Shown piece after piece: positions 1,820-63,740 of a stretch of DNA of 64,000 nt. Position 1 is the stretch's first letter; every line of letters starts with the position of its first letter. Position numbers and translations under genes: made by a program. Under the pieces are notes generated by a model, which was given only the letters and a program-made list of their open reading frames with translations, had not been told where the DNA came from and made no database searches. Location of the stretch: assembly GCA_022340215.1 (NCBI GenBank), contig JAJDOJ010000164.1, forward strand, positions 290-64,289, in the 5' to 3' direction. Source of the DNA: Gammaproteobacteria bacterium (GTDB taxonomy: Bacteria > Pseudomonadota > Gammaproteobacteria > JAJDOJ01).

Positions 1820-3121
1820 CTACGAGTTGCCGAAAAACAACTGGTTCTGTTCTGCCCGGAGTTGGTCCACGAGACGCCCTTGCGGGACTTCCACGTCGTC
1901 GTACGTCACTGTGGTGTCTTTAGGAATATTCCGTTTCAACCTACATCCCTCTGCTAGCCCTATTGGCAGGAGTCTCTCCGCGGAACAGACATCCGCATTC
2001 TCCGCCTCTCCGTAGGTCATGTAGTATCCCATGCCGTCCAGTACCTGCCCTGCCTTGAGATCGATCTTGGCGGTCGTGACCACGTCGACGCAGGGACCTC
2101 CAGCAGGCATGATAGCGCCGTCATTAAACAATGCAGCGCGGGCTACGGTCGTCGGGACCTCGAAGTGGCATAGGTGATAGGGTGTATAGAAGCAATACAG
2201 CGGGCCTTCTCCCAGTTTGTACAGATTCAGATAGTGCTGCTGTTGCGGGTGATCGTGCGTTCCGAGGACAAACACCCCCGGGCCCGGTTCCGCCCTAACC
2301 ACGTAATCGACGATCCCCGTGCCTTCGATGAGGTCTTCGAGTGGATACCAGTTCACGGCCTCCTTGATCGGGGTGCCCGGCTCGACGGTCGGCCCGTGCA
2401 TGCCGCGTTTGGCCACGCGCATACCGGTCGCATTCGCCACGATGGCCTGCTCGAAAGAGATCTTGGTCCCGTCCGCGAACGAGGTCACCATATGGGCCTT
2501 TTGACCCCATTGCCTGGCAAATCCCTCCTGGGTCGTCGGATTACGGTACGGGTCCTGGAGGCCCTTGATGTTGCCGCATAGCACCGGTTTGACACCGATG
2601 CCCTGAACGAATCGATAGAGGTTCAGAATGACACCGGGCTGGTCACCATCGGCATTCGTGTAAACAACGCCAGCCTTGTCCGCATAGGTCTTCAGCAATG
2701 GCCCGATCGTACCGTCCAGTTCCGCGTTCATGATGACGACATGCTTGCCGTTCTCGATGGCCTCCATCACCACACGGGCACCGAACTCAACCGCCCCTGT
2801 CACCTCAATTAGCACCTCGATATGATCCGACCGGCAAAGAAGCATAGAATCGTCGGTTACGGCATAGGTCCCTTTCTCTATGGCCTCGTCCAGCGATGAG
2901 ACTGAATCCACGCACAGCGTGTCGTCTACATCCGCCTCCCGATAGGCCCTGATCGCACCCTCGACAGACCGATTGGAAATCGCGACCAAATCCATCCCAG
3001 GAGTATATTTCAGAATCTGTAACGCGATTCCCCTCCCCATGAAACCTGCACCTACCATCCCAACCCTGATGGGTCTATTCTCCGCCTCTCTCTGCTTCAG
3101 CGCTGTGTCCACAATAATCAT
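1820..3121 (-). CDS. NAD(P)-binding oxidoreductase with a C-terminal SAF domain (homoserine-dehydrogenase-like, COG4091 type). Last gene of the CDP-sugar operon.
   Basis: Rossmann motif VGMVGAGFMGRG at the N-terminus. 433 aa. Same orientation as the sugar-nucleotide genes upstream. Confidence 0.6.
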   Translation of the reverse strand: MIIVDTALKQREAENRPIRVGMVGAGFMGRGIALQILKYTPGMDLVAISNRSVEGAIRAYREADVDDTLCVDSVSSLDEAIEKGTYAVTDDSMLLCRSDHIEVLIEVTGAVEFGARVVMEAIENGKHVVIMNAELDGTIGPLLKTYADKAGVVYTNADGDQPGVILNLYRFVQGIGVKPVLCGNIKGLQDPYRNPTTQEGFARQWGQKAHMVTSFADGTKISFEQAIVANATGMRVAKRGMHGPTVEPGTPIKEAVNWYPLEDLIEGTGIVDYVVRAEPGPGVFVLGTHDHPQQQHYLNLYKLGEGPLYCFYTPYHLCHFEVPTTVARAALFNDGAIMPAGGPCVDVVTTAKIDLKAGQVLDGMGYYMTYGEAENADVCSAERLLPIGLAEGCRLKRNIPKDTTVTYDDVEVPQGRLVDQLRAEQNQLFFGNS

Positions 3122-3187
3122 GCACGCGACTCCAAAATCTGTCTGGATGGAATATCCCCTTGCGTAAGACCGGTCCGGGCGAGGTGA

Positions 3188-3718
3188 TTAACCCTCAAAG
3201 TCCGGCCAAGATGCATCTTTATCGGAGATAACGGAGACCGTGACCGGCCACTCGATTCCCAGGGCCGGGTCGTTGTAGCGCAAACCCTGTTCGGCACCAG
3301 GCGTATAGAACTCCGTCACCATATAATAGGCTTCGGTGTCGTCCTCCAAGGTCACGAATCCGTGAGCAAAGCCTTCAGGCACGAACAACATCCGATGGTT
3401 ATCCGCGGTAAGTTCTACACCTATCCAATCCTTAAATGTCGGGGAGTCTTCACGAAGATCGACGATGACGTCATAAAGGGACCCGCGCGTGCAACGTACC
3501 AGTTTCGACTCCTCGTGGGGACTGATCTGGTAATGCATGCCCCGCATTGTGCCCTTTTTTGTGCTCAGGGAAACGTTGGCCTGCGCGAGATCCGCCGACA
3601 AACCATGTTCCTGCATTTCCCGCTTGCACCAGGCTCTGGCGAAAAAACCTCTTTCATCCCCCAGTTCCTGGATATCGATGATAAAGGCACCCTTGAATTT
3701 GGTCTCGTCAAACTTCAT
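3188..3718 (-). CDS. RmlC-like cupin sugar-nucleotide 3,5-epimerase (dTDP-4-dehydrorhamnose 3,5-epimerase family)
   Basis: 176 aa. Start KFDETKFKGAFIIDIQELGDERGFF and motif MHYQ...VPEGFAHGF are typical of RmlC-family epimerases. Confidence 0.75.
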   Translation of the reverse strand: MKFDETKFKGAFIIDIQELGDERGFFARAWCKREMQEHGLSADLAQANVSLSTKKGTMRGMHYQISPHEESKLVRCTRGSLYDVIVDLREDSPTFKDWIGVELTADNHRMLFVPEGFAHGFVTLEDDTEAYYMVTEFYTPGAEQGLRYNDPALGIEWPVTVSVISDKDASWPDFEG

Positions 3719-4935: not shown

Positions 4936-6156
4936 TCAGGTCAAGGTGGATAGATTACGGTCGATATAGTCGACAACGTAAGCGGAGAATGGGATTGAAC
5001 ACGTCCATCCCGGCGACACAGCATTCAACACATGGGTTGACTCACTATTTCCCTCCAACACGAAGTCCATTTCCAGTTTGCGTTTCTTCGTGTTGACCAA
5101 TTGTGCGCGAATGCCAGGCTTACCCCAATCCCTGAAATGCGACTCGGTAACTCCCGTTGCCAATTTCGTTGCCAGTGAAATCAGATGGTTGCGTGAATAC
5201 TTCCGGATCTCCGTCATCGCCAACCTGGAAAATTTGAATTCGGACGAGGTAAACAGCGATGCAGAACGCAAACCAATATCGACAACCTCACCTAAACTGA
5301 ACCCGTTGAACCCATTGTAATTCTCGCGCCAGAAAGCAGGGATAGCAGTAGGCCCGATTTTGGTTATTCCATCAACGGTAATAGTGAAATGGACGCCGAG
5401 GAACGGATATTCGAGATCCGGAACTGGGTAAATATGCGTCTTGTATGCCCCTTTCTGTTCATTAGATTTCAGGTAGATTCCTTTGAACGGCAAGATCGCA
5501 TAGTCCTCGGAGAAACCAAAATCGCGCGCCACCTTGTCGGCGTACAATCCAGCGGCATTCACTAGATGACCCACCACGTAATCGCCAGATTTGGTAAGTA
5601 TCTTCATTCCGTCTCGCCTGACATATCCAGCGCCGTATCGGAAGTCGATCCCTTCCCGTCTGGCATCCTGCTCCATGTGCTGGATCACCGTGAGTGGATC
5701 GGCGGATGATGTTGTCGGCGAATAAATAGCTCTGCGGTAGGTCTTGATTCGCGGTTCTATCCGCCGTGCCTCCTCCGCGCTCAGTTCCTCGAGCGCCACA
5801 CCATTGGTCGCTCCACGCCTCAATAGTTCATCCAGCAACCTGTCTTCCGACTCATTAGACGCGACGACAAGCTTGCCGCATTTGTTGAGAAATATCCCTT
5901 TATCGTCACAATACTCGGTGAGGGCCTGATTTCCGTCCCGAGTAAATCTGGCCTTCAGACTATCGGCCGTGTAGTAAAAGCCAGCATGCAGCACGCCGCT
6001 ATTCCGACCGCTGGCATGTTCGCCGCAGACGGTTTCCTTTTCCAGGAGGACAACACTGGAACCCGGATTCCGACGTTTTATCTCACGCGCTATGTTGATT
6101 CCGATGATGCCTGCGCCGATGACGAGGAAATCGGCTCGTTTTGCCTTGGTCACCAT
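4936..6156 (-). CDS. FAD-dependent oxidoreductase (DAO superfamily, L-2-hydroxyglutarate-oxidase-like)
   Basis: FAD fingerprint DFLVIGAGIIGINIA at the N-terminus. 406 aa. It sits inside the sugar operon. Confidence 0.65.
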   Translation of the reverse strand: MVTKAKRADFLVIGAGIIGINIAREIKRRNPGSSVVLLEKETVCGEHASGRNSGVLHAGFYYTADSLKARFTRDGNQALTEYCDDKGIFLNKCGKLVVASNESEDRLLDELLRRGATNGVALEELSAEEARRIEPRIKTYRRAIYSPTTSSADPLTVIQHMEQDARREGIDFRYGAGYVRRDGMKILTKSGDYVVGHLVNAAGLYADKVARDFGFSEDYAILPFKGIYLKSNEQKGAYKTHIYPVPDLEYPFLGVHFTITVDGITKIGPTAIPAFWRENYNGFNGFSLGEVVDIGLRSASLFTSSEFKFSRLAMTEIRKYSRNHLISLATKLATGVTESHFRDWGKPGIRAQLVNTKKRKLEMDFVLEGNSESTHVLNAVSPGWTCSIPFSAYVVDYIDRNLSTLT

Positions 6157-34030: not shown

Positions 34031-35053
34031 TTAAAGATAGTCCGAAATCAGAATTTCAGCTATCTGTACGCTGTTCAGGGCCGCGCCCTTGCGCAGGTTA
34101 TCGCTCACGACCCAAAGATCCAGCCCGCGCGGGTGGGAGATATCCTCCCGAATCCGGCCGACATAGACCGCGTCCCTATCGGCAGCTTCGGTAGCGGCGG
34201 TGGGATAGCCACCGTCGCCGCGATCGTCGATCACCTCGACACCCGGCATGGCTTCGAGCAGTTGCCTGGCGCGTTCGGCGGTGATCCGCTCGCCGGTCTC
34301 CAGATGGACCGCCTCCGAGTGTCCGTAGTAGACCGGGACCCTCACTGTCGTCGAATTCACCTGTATCCGCTCGTCCCCAAAGATCTTGCGGGTCTCCCAA
34401 ACCATCTTCATCTCTTCCTTGGTATAGCCGTTATCCATGAATACGTCGATGTGCGGCAGTACGTTGAAAGCGATCTGTTTCGGATAGACCTGCGCCTGCG
34501 GGGGTCGCCCAGAAAGCAGGTCAACGGTCTGACGGGTCAGTTCCTCTATTGCCTCCTTACCGGTACCCGAGACCGCCTGGTAGGTGGCGACATTGATGCG
34601 TTCGATTCCGACAGCGTCGTAGATCGGCTTCAGTGCCACCAGCATCTGTATGGTCGAGCAGTTCGGATTGGCGACGATGCCGCGATTGGTGTAGTCGGCG
34701 ATCGCAGCGGGGTTGACCTCCGGTATGACCAGCGGGATGTCGTCGTCGTAGCGGAACTGCGAGGTGTTGTCGATGACGACGCACCCGGCGTCGGCAGCCT
34801 TCGGCGCGACGACTTCCGAGATCGAGGCCCCGGCGGAAAACAACCCGATGTCCGCCCGCTGGAAATCGAACGTATCGGCATCCAACACCGTGAGTTCCGT
34901 GTCCCCGAAACCGATCTTGCTGCCCGCAGAGCGGCTGCTCGCGAGGGGAAAGACCTCGTTTACCGGGAAATCGCGCTCGGCCAGAATGGACAGCATGACC
35001 TGCCCCACGGCGCCGGTACATCCCAGGACCGCCACATTGAATTTCTTGCTCAT
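34031..35053 (-). CDS. asd: Aspartate-semialdehyde dehydrogenase
   Basis: VAVLGCTGAVGQ...NCSTIQ. The ORF extends to 35065, and MSKKF is the probable start. Confidence 0.9.
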   Translation of the reverse strand: MSKKFNVAVLGCTGAVGQVMLSILAERDFPVNEVFPLASSRSAGSKIGFGDTELTVLDADTFDFQRADIGLFSAGASISEVVAPKAADAGCVVIDNTSQFRYDDDIPLVIPEVNPAAIADYTNRGIVANPNCSTIQMLVALKPIYDAVGIERINVATYQAVSGTGKEAIEELTRQTVDLLSGRPPQAQVYPKQIAFNVLPHIDVFMDNGYTKEEMKMVWETRKIFGDERIQVNSTTVRVPVYYGHSEAVHLETGERITAERARQLLEAMPGVEVIDDRGDGGYPTAATEAADRDAVYVGRIREDISHPRGLDLWVVSDNLRKGAALNSVQIAEILISDYL

Positions 35054-35083
35054 TTCCTTTACCACCCCAGAAAAATATCGCTG

Positions 35084-35256
35084 ACGGCCGAGCTCAGGCG
35101 ATTTCTGTCAAATGACATACCACCCTGCTTGTCTTTTCGTCCGTCCTCTGTGTTGCGACAACAGTGACATAGTTCGACTATGCGCCTGTTGTCGCGCCTT
35201 GATGACGAACGAAAATCGGGCGCGATCTGGTATGCCATTTTCCGGCAATCGCCTCA
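35084..35256. repeat. MITE-like element copy A (about 173 bp, imperfect terminal inverted repeats), located between asd and leuB
   Basis: 5' end ctcaggcgatttctgtcaaatgacatacca and 3' end tggtatgccattttccggcaatcgcctcagg are mutual inverted repeats (about 24 of 30 positions). It is homologous over its full length to 58066..58243, and its 3' end abuts the leuB stop. Confidence 0.55.
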
Positions 35257-36336
35257 GGCCACGAGGGCCGACACCACCGCATCCCCCATTGCCGAGGTCG
35301 ACACCACGGTTTCGTCCCCGGCGGCGATGTCCGCGGTTCGTAGCCCCCGGTCCAGCGCCTCGCCCACTGCGGCCTCGACGCGGTCCGCCAGGTCGGCCCG
35401 GTCCAGCGAGTACCTCAGCATCATGGCCACCGACAGGATGGTCGCCAGAGGATTCGCCCTACCGGTGCCCGCGATGTCGGGCGCGGAACCGTGAATCGGC
35501 TCGTACATGCCCCTGCCGGATGCATCCAGTGAGGCCGATGGCAACATACCGATGGAGCCTGTGAGCATCGCCGCGGCATCCGAGAGAATATCCCCGAACA
35601 TGTTACCCGTCACGATCACGTCGAACTGCTTTGGTGCCCGGACCAACTGCATCGCCGCGTTGTCCACGTACATGTGACTTAGCGACACTTCGGGGTATTC
35701 GCGTGCGACACGTGTAACGACCTCGCGCCAGAGTTCCGACACCTCCAGGACATTGGCCTTGTCGACCGAGCAGACCTTGCGACCGCGTTTCATCGCAACC
35801 CGGAACGCGGAATGCGCAATGCGCGCAACCTCCGATTCCCGGTACACGAGCGTATTGAATCCCTCCTGCTCCTCGTTTTCCAGGGTACGAATTCCCCTCG
35901 GATTACCGAAGTAGATCCCCCCGGTCAGTTCACGCACGATCATGATGTCCAGTCCACAGACGACCTCGTCTCGGAGCGTAGAGGCCGAGGCGAGTTGCGG
36001 ATACAGGACTGCGGGTCGCAGGTTGGAAAAAAGCGCAAGTTCCGAGCGGATACCCAGCAGGCCCCGTTCCGGTCGCAATTCGCGCGAGAGCCCCTCGTAC
36101 TGCGGTCCGCCGACCGCGCCCAGCAGCACCGCGTCGCTCGCCCTGGCGAGATTAAGGGTCTCCCGGGGCAAGGGGTCTCCGGCCACGTCGTAGGCCGCAC
36201 CACCGATCAGGGCTTCCTTGGTCTCGAGGGCGAGATCAAAACGCTCGACGAGCGCGTCCAGCACCTTCCGCGCTTCGGCGACCACCTCCGGGCCGATGCC
36301 GTCTCCCGGCAGCAAGAGCACTTTTCCAACCGTCAT
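35254..36336 (-). CDS. leuB: 3-isopropylmalate dehydrogenase
   Basis: [11 protein letters not shown]...; NAD-IMDH family. Start taken at MTVGKV. Confidence 0.9.
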
Positions 36337-37007
36337 GCGTCGCACCCTGAGCGTTCCTGCACCGCCGGCCCGTGGAACAGCCAGGGGGCCTCCGGGCTTC
36401 GTCGTACCTCGTATGCCCGAATCTCGTCCGCGTAGCGCAAGGTGAGTCCGATCTCGTCCAGTCCGTTGATCAGGCAGTGCCGCCTGAACGAGTCGACCTC
36501 GAATGGCAGCCGCTCGCCATCCGGGGTCTCGACGTTGAGTCGTTCCAGATCGACGGTCAGAGTGTAGCGGTCATTGCTTTCGACCGCCCGGAACAGCCGA
36601 TCAACGGCATCATCCGGCAGAACGACAGGCAGGAAGCCGTTCTTGAAGCTGTTGGTGTGGAAGATTTCGGCGAAACCCGGTGCAATCACGGCCCGGAACC
36701 CGAACTCGCTCAGGGCCCAGACCGCGTGTTCCCTCGAAGACCCGCAACCGAAGTTCTCGCGCGCCAGCAGTATGGTGGCGTCACGGAAGCGTTCCTGATT
36801 GAGGACGAAATCCGGGTTCGGTCGCCGCGCGGCGTGATCGTCTCCGGGTTCTCCCGGATCGAGGTATCGCCAGTGATCGAACAGATTCGGTCCGAACCCG
36901 GTTCGTTTGACGGACTTGAGATATTGCTTGGGTATGATGGCGTCGGTGTCGACATTGGGCCGGTCCAGCGGCGCCACGATCCCGGTCACGCGGATAAACG
37001 GTTCCAT
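36333..37007 (-). CDS. leuD: 3-isopropylmalate dehydratase small subunit
   Basis: [13 protein letters not shown] motif, 224 aa, overlaps leuB by 4 nt. Confidence 0.9.
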
Positions 37008-57550: not shown

Positions 57551-58021
57551 ATGGGACCCATTCCGATCCGCAGTGATGTGACACGTATTGCGGACACCTT
57601 CCGTGAAGCCCTCGTGCGCCACCGCAGGAAACCCCTGCTCAGAGCCGCCATGGCGGCATGCGCGCTCGTGGCGGTTTCCGACGGCAGGGTTCGATTCAGC
57701 GAGCGCGTCAGACTGGACCAGATTCTCGACGCCGTCGACAAGCTCAGGATCTTCAACCCCCACGAGGGGGTCGATCTGTTCGACGGGCACGTCGAGGAGA
57801 TTCTGAAGTCTCCCCAAAATGGGCGGGAGAAGGCGCTTCGGGCAATCGCCGCGGTCTCGGACGACCCCGAGTCTGCCACCCTGCTCGCGCGAATCTGTCT
57901 CGCCGTCGGCCAGGCCGGAGGTGGGGAGGCACTGCCGAAAAAGATCGAAATCGTCAAGCTGTGCAATTGTCTGGGCATCGATCCCGCCACGCTTAATGCC
58001 GATCTGCGATACCTGGACTAG
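57551..58021 (+). CDS. TerB-family (tellurite-resistance TerB-like) protein
   Basis: TerB-like helical pattern LLRAAMAACALVAVSDGRVRFSERVRLDQIL...ATLLARICLAVGQAGG. Confidence 0.55.
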   Translation: MGPIPIRSDVTRIADTFREALVRHRRKPLLRAAMAACALVAVSDGRVRFSERVRLDQILDAVDKLRIFNPHEGVDLFDGHVEEILKSPQNGREKALRAIAAVSDDPESATLLARICLAVGQAGGGEALPKKIEIVKLCNCLGIDPATLNADLRYLD

Positions 58022-58065
58022 CAGACCGCGTTTCCGCTGACTCGATTGAAACCTCGGTGACAACT

Positions 58066-58243
58066 TAGGCGATTTCTGTCAAATATACCCGTCGCGGACA
58101 GGTTTTCACGAGAAAGTGTGTGTCATATTCGTTTCGTGGCAAGGCGCGATGACGCGTAATAGCCGCTCTATTGCAAGGAATCGCAACGCCGCCAACGAAA
58201 ATCCGGCGCATTCTGGTATGCCATTTTCCGGCAATCGTCTTAG
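58066..58243. repeat. MITE-like element copy B (about 178 bp)
   Basis: It shares the 5' end aggcgatttctgtcaaat, an internal gtgtcatattcg block, and the 3' end cgaaaatccggcgcattctggtatgccattttccggcaatcg with copy A at 35084..35256. Both copies are in the same orientation. Confidence 0.55.
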
Positions 58244-58846
58244 CGAAGTGCCCCTCCAGGCGGGTCGGCTGAAGGGACAGCGGCTCACCAGAACGAGGTG
58301 AGCCGCCGCATCCAGCGACAGTCCTGATGGGCGACTGTCCGCCACTTACCTATTCAGGCGGTCGGGATCCCTTTCTGACCCTTGTCAACCGGTCTTCAGA
58401 AACTCGGAGCATTGCGTGGACATGCTTCATCGCTTCAAAGGCGACAGCGACGTAAAGCACATCAGCCTTTCCATGAGCCCAGCCGCAGTTTGCATCGCGG
58501 TTGATCGCCCGCCGTTCATCGATGAAGCGCCAACCAACAGCATGCGGCTCCTCTCGATGACAACAAGTGGACGGGCCTTTGAGGTGTCGCGGCGTTGCTC
58601 CGGTCTGGCCGATCTGGTGTAGATGCGTGAGAAACGACAGCACTTCCTGCCCTTCGCTCCCCAGGTCGACTACCCGGGTCCACCGATTCCCGAAGCACTC
58701 AATGAGGCGGCGTGAATCCGCTCGTCATGACGAGTGAGTCGTATCCCTTCGATTTCGGCCAGGACTCTTTGATGTGCTGTGTTGGAGCGTCGTTTCAAAA
58801 GAGTCTCTACCCGGAAAATTCGATCAAACTCTCGGGAAGATTCGCC

Positions 58847-59100
58847 ATGAGCAAAGTGGGCTTCATTGATTTGGGCGTCATGGGCAGACCCATGGCCGGC
58901 CGGCTGATCGCCGGTGGCCATACGCTGTTCGTTCACTCCAGAAGTGGCGCCTCGCAAGTCATCCTGAACAAGGGCGCCGTCGAATGTGGCAATGGTAAGG
59001 AGGTGGCGGAACACGCCGACGCGATCATCACCATGTTGCCAGACACACCGAAAGTTGCAGTGGTTCTGTTTGGCGGGCGGCATGTGCCTCGAGATATCGA
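58847..59100 (+). pseudogene. N-terminal fragment of a 3-hydroxyisobutyrate / 2-hydroxy-3-oxopropionate reductase family dehydrogenase (GarR/MmsB-like)
   Basis: MSKVGFIDLGVMGRPMAGRLIAGGHTLFVHSRS...ADAIITMLPDTPKV matches the NAD-binding N-terminus of that family. Homology is lost after about 75 aa, and the rest of the gene is absent. Confidence 0.55.
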
Positions 59101-59312
59101 TAGCCCGGCAACGCACGGCTTGAAGTTCGGCAGCACGGTCCATATATTAGACTAATCTAATGTTATTGGGTCTACGAATTTTCGGTTATACAAGGACACC
59201 GTGCCGGTTGCGACATACGGTCCGGCCGGGAGGCATCCGCCGCCCGGCTAAATTCTCAAAACACCTTTGCCGCAATCACGGTTCCCTTTCCGACAGCCAG
59301 GACGAAAAACAG

Positions 59313-60176
59313 ATGAGCGAATCTCCCTATATCACGAATGTCACCCGGGAATCGTTCCCGAGAACGGTGCTACGGAAGTCCCGTGAAGTACCGGTACTGG
59401 TGGATTTCTGGGCGGACTGGTGTGGCCCCTGCCACATGCTGACGCCGGTCCTCGCCAGCCTCGTGGAAAAATACCAGGGCGAATTCCTGCTGGCCAAGGT
59501 CAACAGCGATGAACAGCAGGAACTCGCAGTGCAGTACGGGGTACGCAGCCTGCCCACCGTCAAGGTGTTCCGCAACGGCGAGGTCGTGGACGAGTTCATG
59601 GGCGCGCAACCGGAATCCGTGGTCCGCGAGATCATCGAGCGGCACATCCAACGCGAGTCGGACAAGGTTTTTCTCGCGGCCCGCGCCGCCCTGGAAGCCG
59701 GCGACAAGCGACAGGGGCTGACCCTGCTGGAACAGGCCGCCGGTATGGCCCCGGACAACGCTGAGATCCGCATCGAATGGGCACGTGTCCTGCTCGAAAG
59801 CGGTGACCCCGACGGCGCGTCGGCATTGCTAGATCAACTCGGTCCCGCCGACCGCGACCTGCCGGGTGCCAGAAGGCTGCTCGCGCAGATGGAATTTGCG
59901 CGCAGCGCCGCCGACACACCGGATGCAGGAGAGCTGGCTGCCCGTGTGTCGGCGGCCCCGGAGGATCTCGCGGCACGCTACGGTCTCGGCGCGCACCTTA
60001 TCCTGAAGGGCGATTTCGAGGGCGGCATGGACCAGTTTTTCGAGATTATGCGGCGTGACCGGGCATTCAGCGACGACGCCGGGCGCAAGGCCCTGCTGTC
60101 GGTGTTCGACCTGCTCGGAGAAGGTGACGAACGCGTCAAGCGCTTCCGGTCGAAGATGTTCGCCATTTTGCACTAA
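59313..60176 (+). CDS. cnoX: Thioredoxin-domain co-chaperone with C-terminal TPR-like repeats (YbbN/CnoX family)
   Basis: WCGPC thioredoxin motif followed by a helical TPR-like C-terminal half. The ORF begins at 59160, and MSESPYITNV is the probable start. Confidence 0.75.
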   Translation: MSESPYITNVTRESFPRTVLRKSREVPVLVDFWADWCGPCHMLTPVLASLVEKYQGEFLLAKVNSDEQQELAVQYGVRSLPTVKVFRNGEVVDEFMGAQPESVVREIIERHIQRESDKVFLAARAALEAGDKRQGLTLLEQAAGMAPDNAEIRIEWARVLLESGDPDGASALLDQLGPADRDLPGARRLLAQMEFARSAADTPDAGELAARVSAAPEDLAARYGLGAHLILKGDFEGGMDQFFEIMRRDRAFSDDAGRKALLSVFDLLGEGDERVKRFRSKMFAILH

Positions 60177-60465: not shown

Positions 60466-60481
60466 CCTTGAGACATTCAAC

Positions 60482-60544
60482 ACGTAGCGGTCTTGCCATG
60501 GAGGCAGTCTACTCGAGCCACAGTCACGGGACAAGACCTGACCC
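60482..60544. repeat. REP-like 63-bp hairpin repeat, copy 1
   Basis: Identical to 63678..63740: acGTAGcggtcttgcc...ggacaagacctgaccc. It has a GTAG head and a stem ggtcttgcc/ggacaagacc. It sits exactly at the truncation point of ackA. Confidence 0.6.
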
Positions 60545-62957: not shown

Positions 62958-63071
62958 TACTCTTGAGTCGGATTCGCCGCCCGGAATATCCAGGCCGGTC
63001 GGCAGTGTCTACACCCCCGTCATCAGGCTCTGATGGAATCAGGCGGTACCTATCGTGCAGCACAAACAGGG

Positions 63072-63647
63072 TCAGGTCTTGTCTCGTGCCTTTTCAGGTA
63101 GATTCACAATTCTGCCGATCCTGGAATAAGGTAATCCACCATGCTCGCTAATCTCTCGCATATTGTAGCCTCCACTATTCAAGGCTTCGAAAATCGCAGT
63201 ATCGCGATCTCGGTGTTTGTCGAAATACCAAGTCAACGGCCGGGACACGGGCCGTCGTTGCGTCTTGGGGATTTCACTCAAGCGTCGGTCTGCGTCTATT
63301 TTGCGCTGCATCGTATCCACAAATGCATCTGAATCCAGATAGATTTGATTCTTGAGTTCTTGCCAGGGGAAAGGCCGATTCTTTCCGTCGGCGACAAACC
63401 GTCGGTACGCGGTCTGTGCCTGTTGCTTGCGTTCGGCGAACGCGGCCAGTATCCAGTCGATCTCCAGCCAATTGGGCACCACGGTCATTCCTACCGTAAC
63501 CCGATAGTTGCTCCAGGGCCAATCCCGTGCCGTGCGTACCATGCGGGCGCGAACGGGATTGAGAACGATGTAGCGAGATAACTCCAACAGATGATCGTCT
63601 TTTTGTACCAAGATGGCCTTGTATCGGCATTGATAGACGTGTCCTAC
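63072..63647 (-). pseudogene. 5'-truncated RAYT/IS200-like Y1 transposase-family gene (catalytic HuH N-terminal part missing; C-terminal DnaA-type HTH retained)
   Basis: It begins immediately after an in-frame TAG with GHVYQCRYKAILVQKDDHLLELSRYIVLNPVRARMV...WPWSNY (conserved core of the family). No start codon. The REP-like repeat lies 30 nt upstream. Confidence 0.65.
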
Positions 63648-63677
63648 CTACCCGATAAGGGCTCCAGCAAACTCTAT

Positions 63678-63740
63678 ACGTAGCGGTCTTGCCATGGAGG
63701 CAGTCTACTCGAGCCACAGTCACGGGACAAGACCTGACCC
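63678..63740. repeat. REP-like 63-bp hairpin repeat, copy 2
   Basis: Exact copy of 60482..60544 in the same orientation. Confidence 0.6.

Follow-up and report, generated by a model that had tools for sequence, protein, structure and literature searches.

Several families of MITEs (miniature inverted-repeat transposable elements) have been described in bacteria, including Correia/NEMIS in Neisseria, ERIC/IRU in enterobacteria and RUP in Streptococcus pneumoniae (reviewed in PMC10969869). The repeat considered here resembles all of these: it is a non-coding element of between 100 and 250 bp, its ends are inverted repeats, it duplicates a short AT-rich target, its intergenic copies number from dozens to hundreds, its transcript would fold into a long hairpin, and length subfamilies and nested or tandem insertions occur (PMC10969869). 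It occurs twice, as copy A between leuB and asd and as copy B downstream of a TerB-like gene, in a stretch of 64,000 nucleotides from a Gammaproteobacteria bacterium (GenBank assembly GCA_022340215.1, contig JAJDOJ010000164.1, positions 290 to 64,289 of the forward strand), the whole of which is referred to below as the window. The two copies are very probably members of one family of MITEs, i.e. of DNA transposons that are non-autonomous; its copies are dispersed, have exact ends and are flanked by a duplicated TNA triplet, and close relatives have a clean empty site. The family is previously undescribed but of an ordinary kind, having every defining feature of a MITE other than an identified parent. 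In sequence it is unrelated to the families just mentioned, and no match to it was found in Rfam, in plasmids, in phages or in a literature search. Its ends have no relation to the 26-bp Correia repeat, and its host is a Chromatiales-like gammaproteobacterium rather than a Neisseria, so that it works as Correia/NEMIS elements do without being one of them. The target duplication of Correia and RUP elements is TA, whereas that of the present family is the 3-bp TNA.

Other described systems are closer in this last respect. Duplication of TNA within C-TNA-G/R is shared with the IS1031, IS427 and ISL2 groups of the insertion sequence (IS) family IS5, with PIF/Harbinger elements, with Tourist MITEs and with NuwaII, which targets C-TNA-G (PMC4482050, PMC2516522); 3-bp duplications are typical of the PIF/Harbinger-IS5 superfamily, one of whose groups has a C-TNA-G target (PMC4482050), while IS1031-group IS5 elements recognise three nucleotides (PMC2516522). 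The present family differs from IS5-family elements in having no transposase gene linked to its ends, the target duplication being the one ground for any membership; the ends start with GG and carry a TGTC..AAA motif, and bear a loose resemblance to the end GAGTTTGTCTAAAC of an IS5-family remnant at locus L096. Elements of the Tc4/Tc5 type, in the Tc1-mariner group, combine a fold-back structure with a CTNAG target and a TNA duplication, and so share target, duplication and strongly palindromic body with this family, but they are eukaryotic whereas the host here is bacterial. The IS630-family elements of bacteria normally duplicate TA, and no IS630-type gene was found in the DNA collected for this analysis (about 0.77 Mb, to all of which the copy, site and parent counts below refer, its metagenome part resting on the at least 120 matches listed). 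Finally, repetitive extragenic palindromic (REP) sequences and their paired form, REPINs, which go with REP-associated tyrosine transposases (RAYTs), are likewise palindromic, intergenic, abundant and able to form hairpins in DNA or RNA; unlike the present elements, with their 27-bp imperfect terminal repeats and TNA duplication, REPINs are built of 20-40 bp REP units and have no duplication.

Ends, target site and spread of the family

An earlier note, made from the letters of the window alone, had proposed at least two same-strand copies, each of about 175 bp, with common ends and partial internal identity. This is borne out by pairwise alignment, in which both copies lie on the plus strand with identical ends and interiors that are only partly alike, and by two exact words, a left 18-mer (AGGCGATTTCTGTCAAAT) and a right 25-mer (CTGGTATGCCATTTTCCGGCAATCG), each of which is present at both copies and nowhere else in the window and is expected 0 times in shuffles. 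A profile built from 92 family members (nhmmer) likewise finds just these two copies in the 64 kb. While both copies are thus real, their bounds are tighter than had been supposed, copy A running from 35097 to 35253 and copy B from 58068 to 58239 (172 bp, read base by base). Copy A, on the plus strand, belongs to the main subfamily and is complete at 157 bp, matching the profile over its full length (E 1e-52). Its left terminal inverted repeat, GGCGATTTCTGTCAAATGACATACCAC (35097..35123, plus strand), has 1 mismatch to the family left-end consensus in a fuzzy search, while the right one (35227..35253), which reads GGCGATTGCCGGAAAATGGCATACCAG on the minus strand, has 0 mismatches to the right-end consensus. 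These repeats are 27 bp long with 21 of 27 positions matched, close to the 24 or so of 30 claimed earlier for each copy; in copy B the claim holds no further than 17 nt into the left repeat. The triplet TCA flanks copy A on either side on the plus strand, at 35094..35096 and again at 35254..35256, the second of these being the TGA stop codon of leuB on the minus strand.

How copy A came to occupy its present place can be read from its relatives. Both leuB (3-isopropylmalate dehydrogenase, 35254..36345, an open reading frame (ORF) whose orthologous gene calls have an Iso_dh Pfam match) and asd (aspartate-semialdehyde dehydrogenase, 34031..35053, with Pfam Semialdhyde_dh and Semialdhyde_dhC on an identical product and homologues named Asd) are on the minus strand, so that copy A, with leuB upstream and asd downstream, lies after the stop of leuB and before the start of asd, the gene order being leuC-leuD-leuB-asd-fimV. 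The similarity of Asd places the organism as an uncultured gammaproteobacterium near Chromatiales and Ectothiorhodospiraceae. In L022 (SRR22808092) and L023 (JGI 3300025568), whose Asd is 97% identical and whose flanking DNA has 96.8-98.2% nucleotide identity to the window, and also in L024, from the related genome MAG059, the leuB-asd spacer is a mere 34-38 bp, holds a single TGA (minus strand) and is free of the element, whereas in the window and in the identical contig L021 the element occupies it. On alignment, the relatives read GGCCTGA followed directly by GCTC, while the window and L021 read GGCCTGA, then the 157 bp, then TGAGCTC, the extra block being exactly the element plus one TGA. 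It is clear from this that copy A inserted into a spacer of about 37 bp, at CTGAG on the minus strand, after the split from relatives 97-98% identical, that the leuB stop TGA served as its target triplet and was regenerated, and that the element arrives by insertion, which here was precise and recent. Since the stop codon was re-used in this way, leuB and asd are both undamaged; the earlier remark that copy A ends at the leuB stop codon was thus correct, that codon being the duplicated target. The case is a textbook one of precise insertion re-using a stop codon as target triplet, and the presence or absence of the element offers a marker separating lineages that are 97-98% identical in DNA.

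Beyond the window, an exact 20-mer from the right end, scanned across one genome per species, gave 20 stretches. One metagenome-assembled genome (MAG), JAYENI01, ‘Pseudomonadota bacterium MAG059’ (GCA_034722015.1), accounts for 17 of these; the other 3 (Binatia, Kineothrix and Bacteroidetes) were set aside as chance, the rest of the element being absent there. A fuzzy search of the collected MAG059 DNA added more diverged copies and solo ends, so that the family occupies at least 17 places in this genome. A degenerate pattern of the terminal repeats matched at least 120 stretches in JGI metagenome contigs, but 0 in viral contigs. In all, 105 distinct sites in the collected DNA carry complete copies, which number 107, and 92 of these copies are 150-160 bp long; the family is thereby seen at more than a hundred places among related gammaproteobacteria that are uncultured and of sulfur type. 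The earlier note had proposed counting copies, with a finding of two only, shown by flanking synteny to be remnants of a duplicated gene, telling against a MITE; what is found instead is many dispersed copies, in MAG059 and in the metagenome contigs alike.

The canonical element is 155-159 bp long, almost perfectly palindromic and without a gene. Its 27-bp ends are GGCGATTTCTGTCAAATGACATACCAG on the left and, as the complement of the right end, the GGCGATTGCCGGAAAATGGCATACCAG already given for copy A, with most end columns at least 90% conserved across the 92 copies, while mean pairwise identity within the family is 81% and two large subfamilies can be distinguished. Between copy A and copies at loci unrelated to its own the identity reaches 96-97.5%, which on sequence grounds points to recent activity. 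A further subfamily, of 235 bp, has an extra segment of about 80 bp near the right arm and is found at 8-9 different sites, and must therefore have been mobilised after gaining the insert; the copies lie at L046:387-621, L047:724-959, L051:2367-2602, L052:398-635, L086:124-358, L109:10231-10465, L138:522-756 and L142:1915-2150, with a related copy of 224 bp listed alongside them at L049:422-645. The insert, which forms a hairpin of its own (it contains CTTGGGCACCGGTCTTGGGCTTCCTGCCCAAG), replaces AAAAT near the right arm. A few of the complete copies are shorter, internally deleted derivatives. Two miniature forms, one a 105-bp internal-deletion derivative at L126:4774-4878 and the other a 20-bp remnant at L010:11-36, whose two ends meet directly, with the duplication still on either side (TAA-GGCGATTTCTGTCAATCGCC-TAA), could be deletion products or excision-repair scars.

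At 73 of the 105 sites the element has the same triplet to its left and to its right, this being TAA at 42, TTA at 25, TCA at 2 and TGA at 2. The middle base agrees between the two sides in the manner of a direct and not an inverted repeat (A/A 42, T/T 25, discordant 7; Fisher p 5e-13), and the triplet is therefore a duplicated target and not part of the inverted repeat. Taken over the sites, the target, which is short, palindromic and AT-rich, has the profile Y-T-W-A-R, with C at 66 of 103, T at 96 of 103, A at 96 of 103 and then G or A at 79 of 103. Both exact ends and a target-site duplication, TNA, are thus recoverable, as the note had suggested should be checked. Insertions avoid genes: just 7 of 66 reconstructed empty sites fall in gene-like ORFs, as against 51% when 1,320 positions are drawn at random from that DNA (p 3e-11), which is selection against genic insertions. 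At L018:5740-6048 (triplet at 5897-5899) and at L019:4439-4443, elements abut head-to-tail with one TNA between them, an arrangement that is to be expected, since the junction GCC-TNA-GGC re-creates the preferred target; these tandem arrays, with an element re-creating its own target, are another textbook case.

The same observations dispose of the notion that the two copies are what is left of a gene duplication, or go back to a segmental duplication in this genome, or are alike by chance. That there are only two copies in the window, with unlike interiors, might have suggested as much, but the shared ends are expected 0 times by chance, the 105 sites have unrelated flanks, there is no conserved reading frame and the element is precisely absent from close relatives. 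Copy number and empty site together have already refuted this explanation, to which we attach a negligible probability.

The hairpin and possible roles in RNA

On the plus strand copy A folds as a single 157-nt hairpin (-79.9 kcal/mol, z -7.6 against shuffles), and on the minus strand it does the same (-86.0 kcal/mol, z -8.2); copy B does not form a hairpin beyond what shuffles give (z -0.9). Such a fold is what would be expected had these sequences been structured small RNAs, an alternative raised by the earlier note, or cis-regulatory hairpins such as terminators or RNase-processing sites, selected for their fold and not spread by transposition. Since RNAalifold on a MAFFT alignment yielded just 13 pairs, the fold of copy A was mapped onto the alignment of 92 copies (90 of them distinct). 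Paired cells then amount to 86.8%, a measure biased in favour of the structure by its having been taken from one member, as against 32-41% in controls with the 3' partners displaced by 1-3 columns (slid controls), and changes on both sides of a pair are seen at 24 of 62 pairs, in 209 cells as against 43-64 in the slid controls; 0 of 500 shuffles reach the observed values. Examples are the pairs 68-102 (AU 61, GC 22), 81-86 (UA 44, CG 34) and, within the terminal repeats, 18-148 (GC 41, CG 9, AU 7). The two arms of the hairpin co-evolve.

Fold and co-variation thus speak for a role in RNA, and both exceed their controls, but most of what else was found speaks against it. Over the whole window Rfam gives 0 matches at gathering score, as it also does over 35000-35350 at E<=1, no sigma-70-like promoter or pattern of hairpin plus U-run terminator occurs in or beside copy A, and no terminator-like site was found on either strand over 34900-35400 and 57900-58500. 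The elements occur in tandem, convergent and divergent gene contexts, and in the tandem ones show no bias of orientation relative to the flanking genes (11 same and 7 opposite, p 0.48, a small sample with crude gene calls). Both strands fold equally well, and with G-U in 422 cells and A-C mismatches in 281, on a structure derived from the plus strand, there is no clear strand-specific constraint at the level of RNA. As for the co-variation, the copies fall into few subfamilies and the independent events are accordingly few; it may stem from a small number of subfamily founding events, and from the two ends having to suit the same transposase variant. Most directly, selection for a small RNA alone is disfavoured because the target-site duplications and the precise empty site show that the element arrives by insertion. 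Overall, an origin as small RNAs or regulatory hairpins is to be regarded as highly improbable. Nor is there support for the earlier suggestion that copy A might contribute the leuB terminator: the hairpin is not followed by a U-tract, and where the element is absent, in relatives, the leuB-asd spacer is only 34-38 bp.

A different reading is that the palindrome itself, and not just the ends that bind the transposase, is selected; the element would then be a MITE co-opted as a site of double-stranded RNA processing or insulation, or would be moved through a DNA-hairpin intermediate by an unexpected transposase. The co-variation of the arms across subfamilies (24 of 62 pairs) and the location inside operons such as leuB-asd without disruption would fit this, and an enzyme of that sort would explain the absence of an ordinary parent IS from the collected DNA; all the same, we consider it unlikely. 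Were leuB and asd co-transcribed, the 157-nt, perfect-looking RNA hairpin of copy A would stand between the two genes, where by analogy with Correia and ERIC elements it could act as an RNase III substrate, or as a slow-down or roadblock for the polymerase.

Nor does the element code for anything. The ORF running through it is not conserved, its ATG being missing in 51 of 92 copies and its frame closed in 22 more, and an encoded micro-protein was rejected for this reason. The 10-residue peptide that had been noticed in spurious small ORFs of both copies is real enough, but is a by-product of the conserved right end; as the family generates spurious ORF calls sharing this peptide, masking is advisable.

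Mobilising enzyme and missing parent

The TNA duplication at Y-TWA-R sites suggests a cut-and-paste transposase of the DDE type making 3-nt staggered cuts, which would be supplied in trans by an IS not recovered here. Mobilisation in trans is suggested also because several length variants, and a chimera described below, carry the same ends. The earlier note had proposed looking for an autonomous IS with matching terminal repeats, and none was found in the collected DNA, whether by a fuzzy search for inverted end pairs 260-4000 bp apart, by relaxed 13-mer ends 600-3000 bp apart, or by all-against-all blastn of the collected loci, which revealed no long common repeat that might be the parent. 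Searching plasmid and phage collections with copy A (blastn) gave chance matches of 20-40 nt or none, and a literature search for the terminal-repeat strings gave 0 papers.

Individual candidates fared no better. Solo ends with at least 300 bp of inward sequence proved to be truncated copies beside ordinary genes (htpG, lon, murA, acnA and others). A 1.6-kb candidate flanked by TTA/TTA, L096:1844-3446, was rejected as a truncated copy plus unrelated IS5, ISL3 and IS66-like fragments plus a separate complete copy. At L091 one end lies beside an IS4-like gene, outside a complete copy. The surroundings of the L096 candidate form a cluster of broken ISs (L096:800-3300), with IS5-family pieces (DUF4096 at 821-1120 on the minus strand and DDE_Tnp_1_2 at 2916-3263) and with ISL3-like and IS66-like fragments, the truncated copy of the element starting at 1844 and the complete one occupying 3300-3446. 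The IS5-family remnant here, the only one seen, is AT-rich and ends in GACAAACTC followed by TAA, i.e. at a TNA site and in the same communities, but its terminal repeats differ from those of the family.

One further candidate bears on a second alternative, namely that these are REPIN-like elements, pairs of REP palindromes mobilised by a REP-associated tyrosine (Y1/HUH) transposase present in single copy. The palindromic build, the intergenic location and the high copy number would all suit a REPIN, and at L016 a solo right end of 35 nt (2028-2063) lies about 200 bp upstream of a gene for a 334-aa Y1_Tnp (IS200-like) protein with a C-terminal helix-turn-helix (2249-3253). IS200/IS605-type and REP elements make no target-site duplications, however, while most sites here have a 3-bp duplication with a co-varying middle base, and on this account the Y1_Tnp gene was rejected as a RAYT-type mobiliser; the long, imperfect terminal inverted repeats are also of the DDE-transposon type. 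With a Y1_Tnp neighbour at one truncated copy among more than 130 ends, this single case is probably a coincidence. A REPIN-like nature is likewise highly improbable.

For a MITE moved by a DDE enzyme, the IS5 / PIF-Harbinger superfamily is the probable source of that enzyme, a preference somewhat better than even and not established. It must be remembered that several points weigh against the account given so far, or at least against parts of it. The transposase, and hence the superfamily, is read from the target-site duplication and from nothing else, and since Tc4 and Tc5, of the Tc1/mariner-IS630 group, also use CTNAG/TNA targets, the superfamily can be no more than probable. No autonomous element with these terminal repeats was found in the roughly 0.77 Mb, although MAGs usually lose their IS copies. 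The flanking triplets differ at 32 of the 105 sites, as decay would be expected to bring about, and insertions in nests or in tandem likewise. A clean empty site for copy B was not recovered among the three close TerB homologues tried, and any influence of copy A on the expression of leuB and asd is conjecture. As things stand the family raises no new question unless the hairpin is functional or the mobilising enzyme is an unusual one.

Copy B and a second repeat family

Copy B starts 44 bp downstream of a plus-strand TerB-like gene (57551..58021; Pfam TerB, E 1e-5 and 26.3 bits, the cut-off being 24.4) and, judged by its sequence, is a recombinant. All of its parts are on the plus strand. The first 17 nt (58068..58084) are the left terminus of the family described above, family 1, comprising only the start of the terminal repeat, with an exact match to copy A and a profile match confined to model positions 1-23. 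They are followed by a core of about 110 nt (58085..58196) derived from a second family, with 94-97% identity to L078:5163-5272, L045:2243-2352 and L075:1528-1637. The remaining 43 nt or so (58197..58239) are a family-1 right arm, which has 90% identity with copy A at its right end, matches model positions 112-156 and includes the right terminal repeat (58213-58239), with 1 mismatch to the right-end consensus. The joints fall at short shared strings, ATACC and ACGAA, i.e. at microhomologies. Despite its chimeric body, copy B retains a TTA/TTA duplication (58065..58067 and 58240..58242, read base by base on the plus strand) in a C-TTA-G context.

The second family, of about 165 bp, has inverted ends of its own (ATACCCGTCGCGGACAGGTTTTC and GAAACCTGTCCGTGACGGGTAT) and stands alone at three loci with unrelated flanks, L078:5113-5350, L045:2160-2400 (minus strand) and L075:1446-1690 (minus strand). 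It has a segment beginning CAAGGCGCGA in common with family 1, in inverted orientation, the two families being partly homologous. At L078:3824-4083 there is a different chimera, in which a family-1 element in reverse orientation is fused to family 2's left 40 nt, so that recombination between the two families recurs; it provides a textbook case of recombination between two MITE families.

Five independent assemblies of this lineage contain copy B. All exact matches to the TerB-like gene carry it, while relatives with 89% identity in TerB have a different neighbour. The closest relative without copy B, L150 (TerB 92%), ceases to be homologous 10 bp before the element. Four independent short-read contigs with an identical TerB-like gene (L026, L027, L028 and L029) all end 15-50 nt into copy B (window 58068-58115), and the repeat thus explains short-read assembly breaks in these sediment gammaproteobacteria.

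Of the other features nearby, the interval between copy B and a thioredoxin/TPR gene (59160..60176), i.e. 58250..59160, contains only a short NAD_binding_2 fragment (58712..59155, a gene call in L025) and is not homologous to the same interval of L150; it looks like a decaying, variable region. Further along the window there is an unrelated repeat of 63-68 nt, ACGTAGCGGTCTTGCCATGGAGGCAGTCTACTCGAGCCACAGTCACGGGACAAGACCTGACCC, for which Rfam has no match, at 60477..60544 and 63673..63740, its copies being 97-100% identical to each other; it has a partial inverted match at 63068..63091 and an internal inverted repeat, GGTCTTG…CAAGACC.

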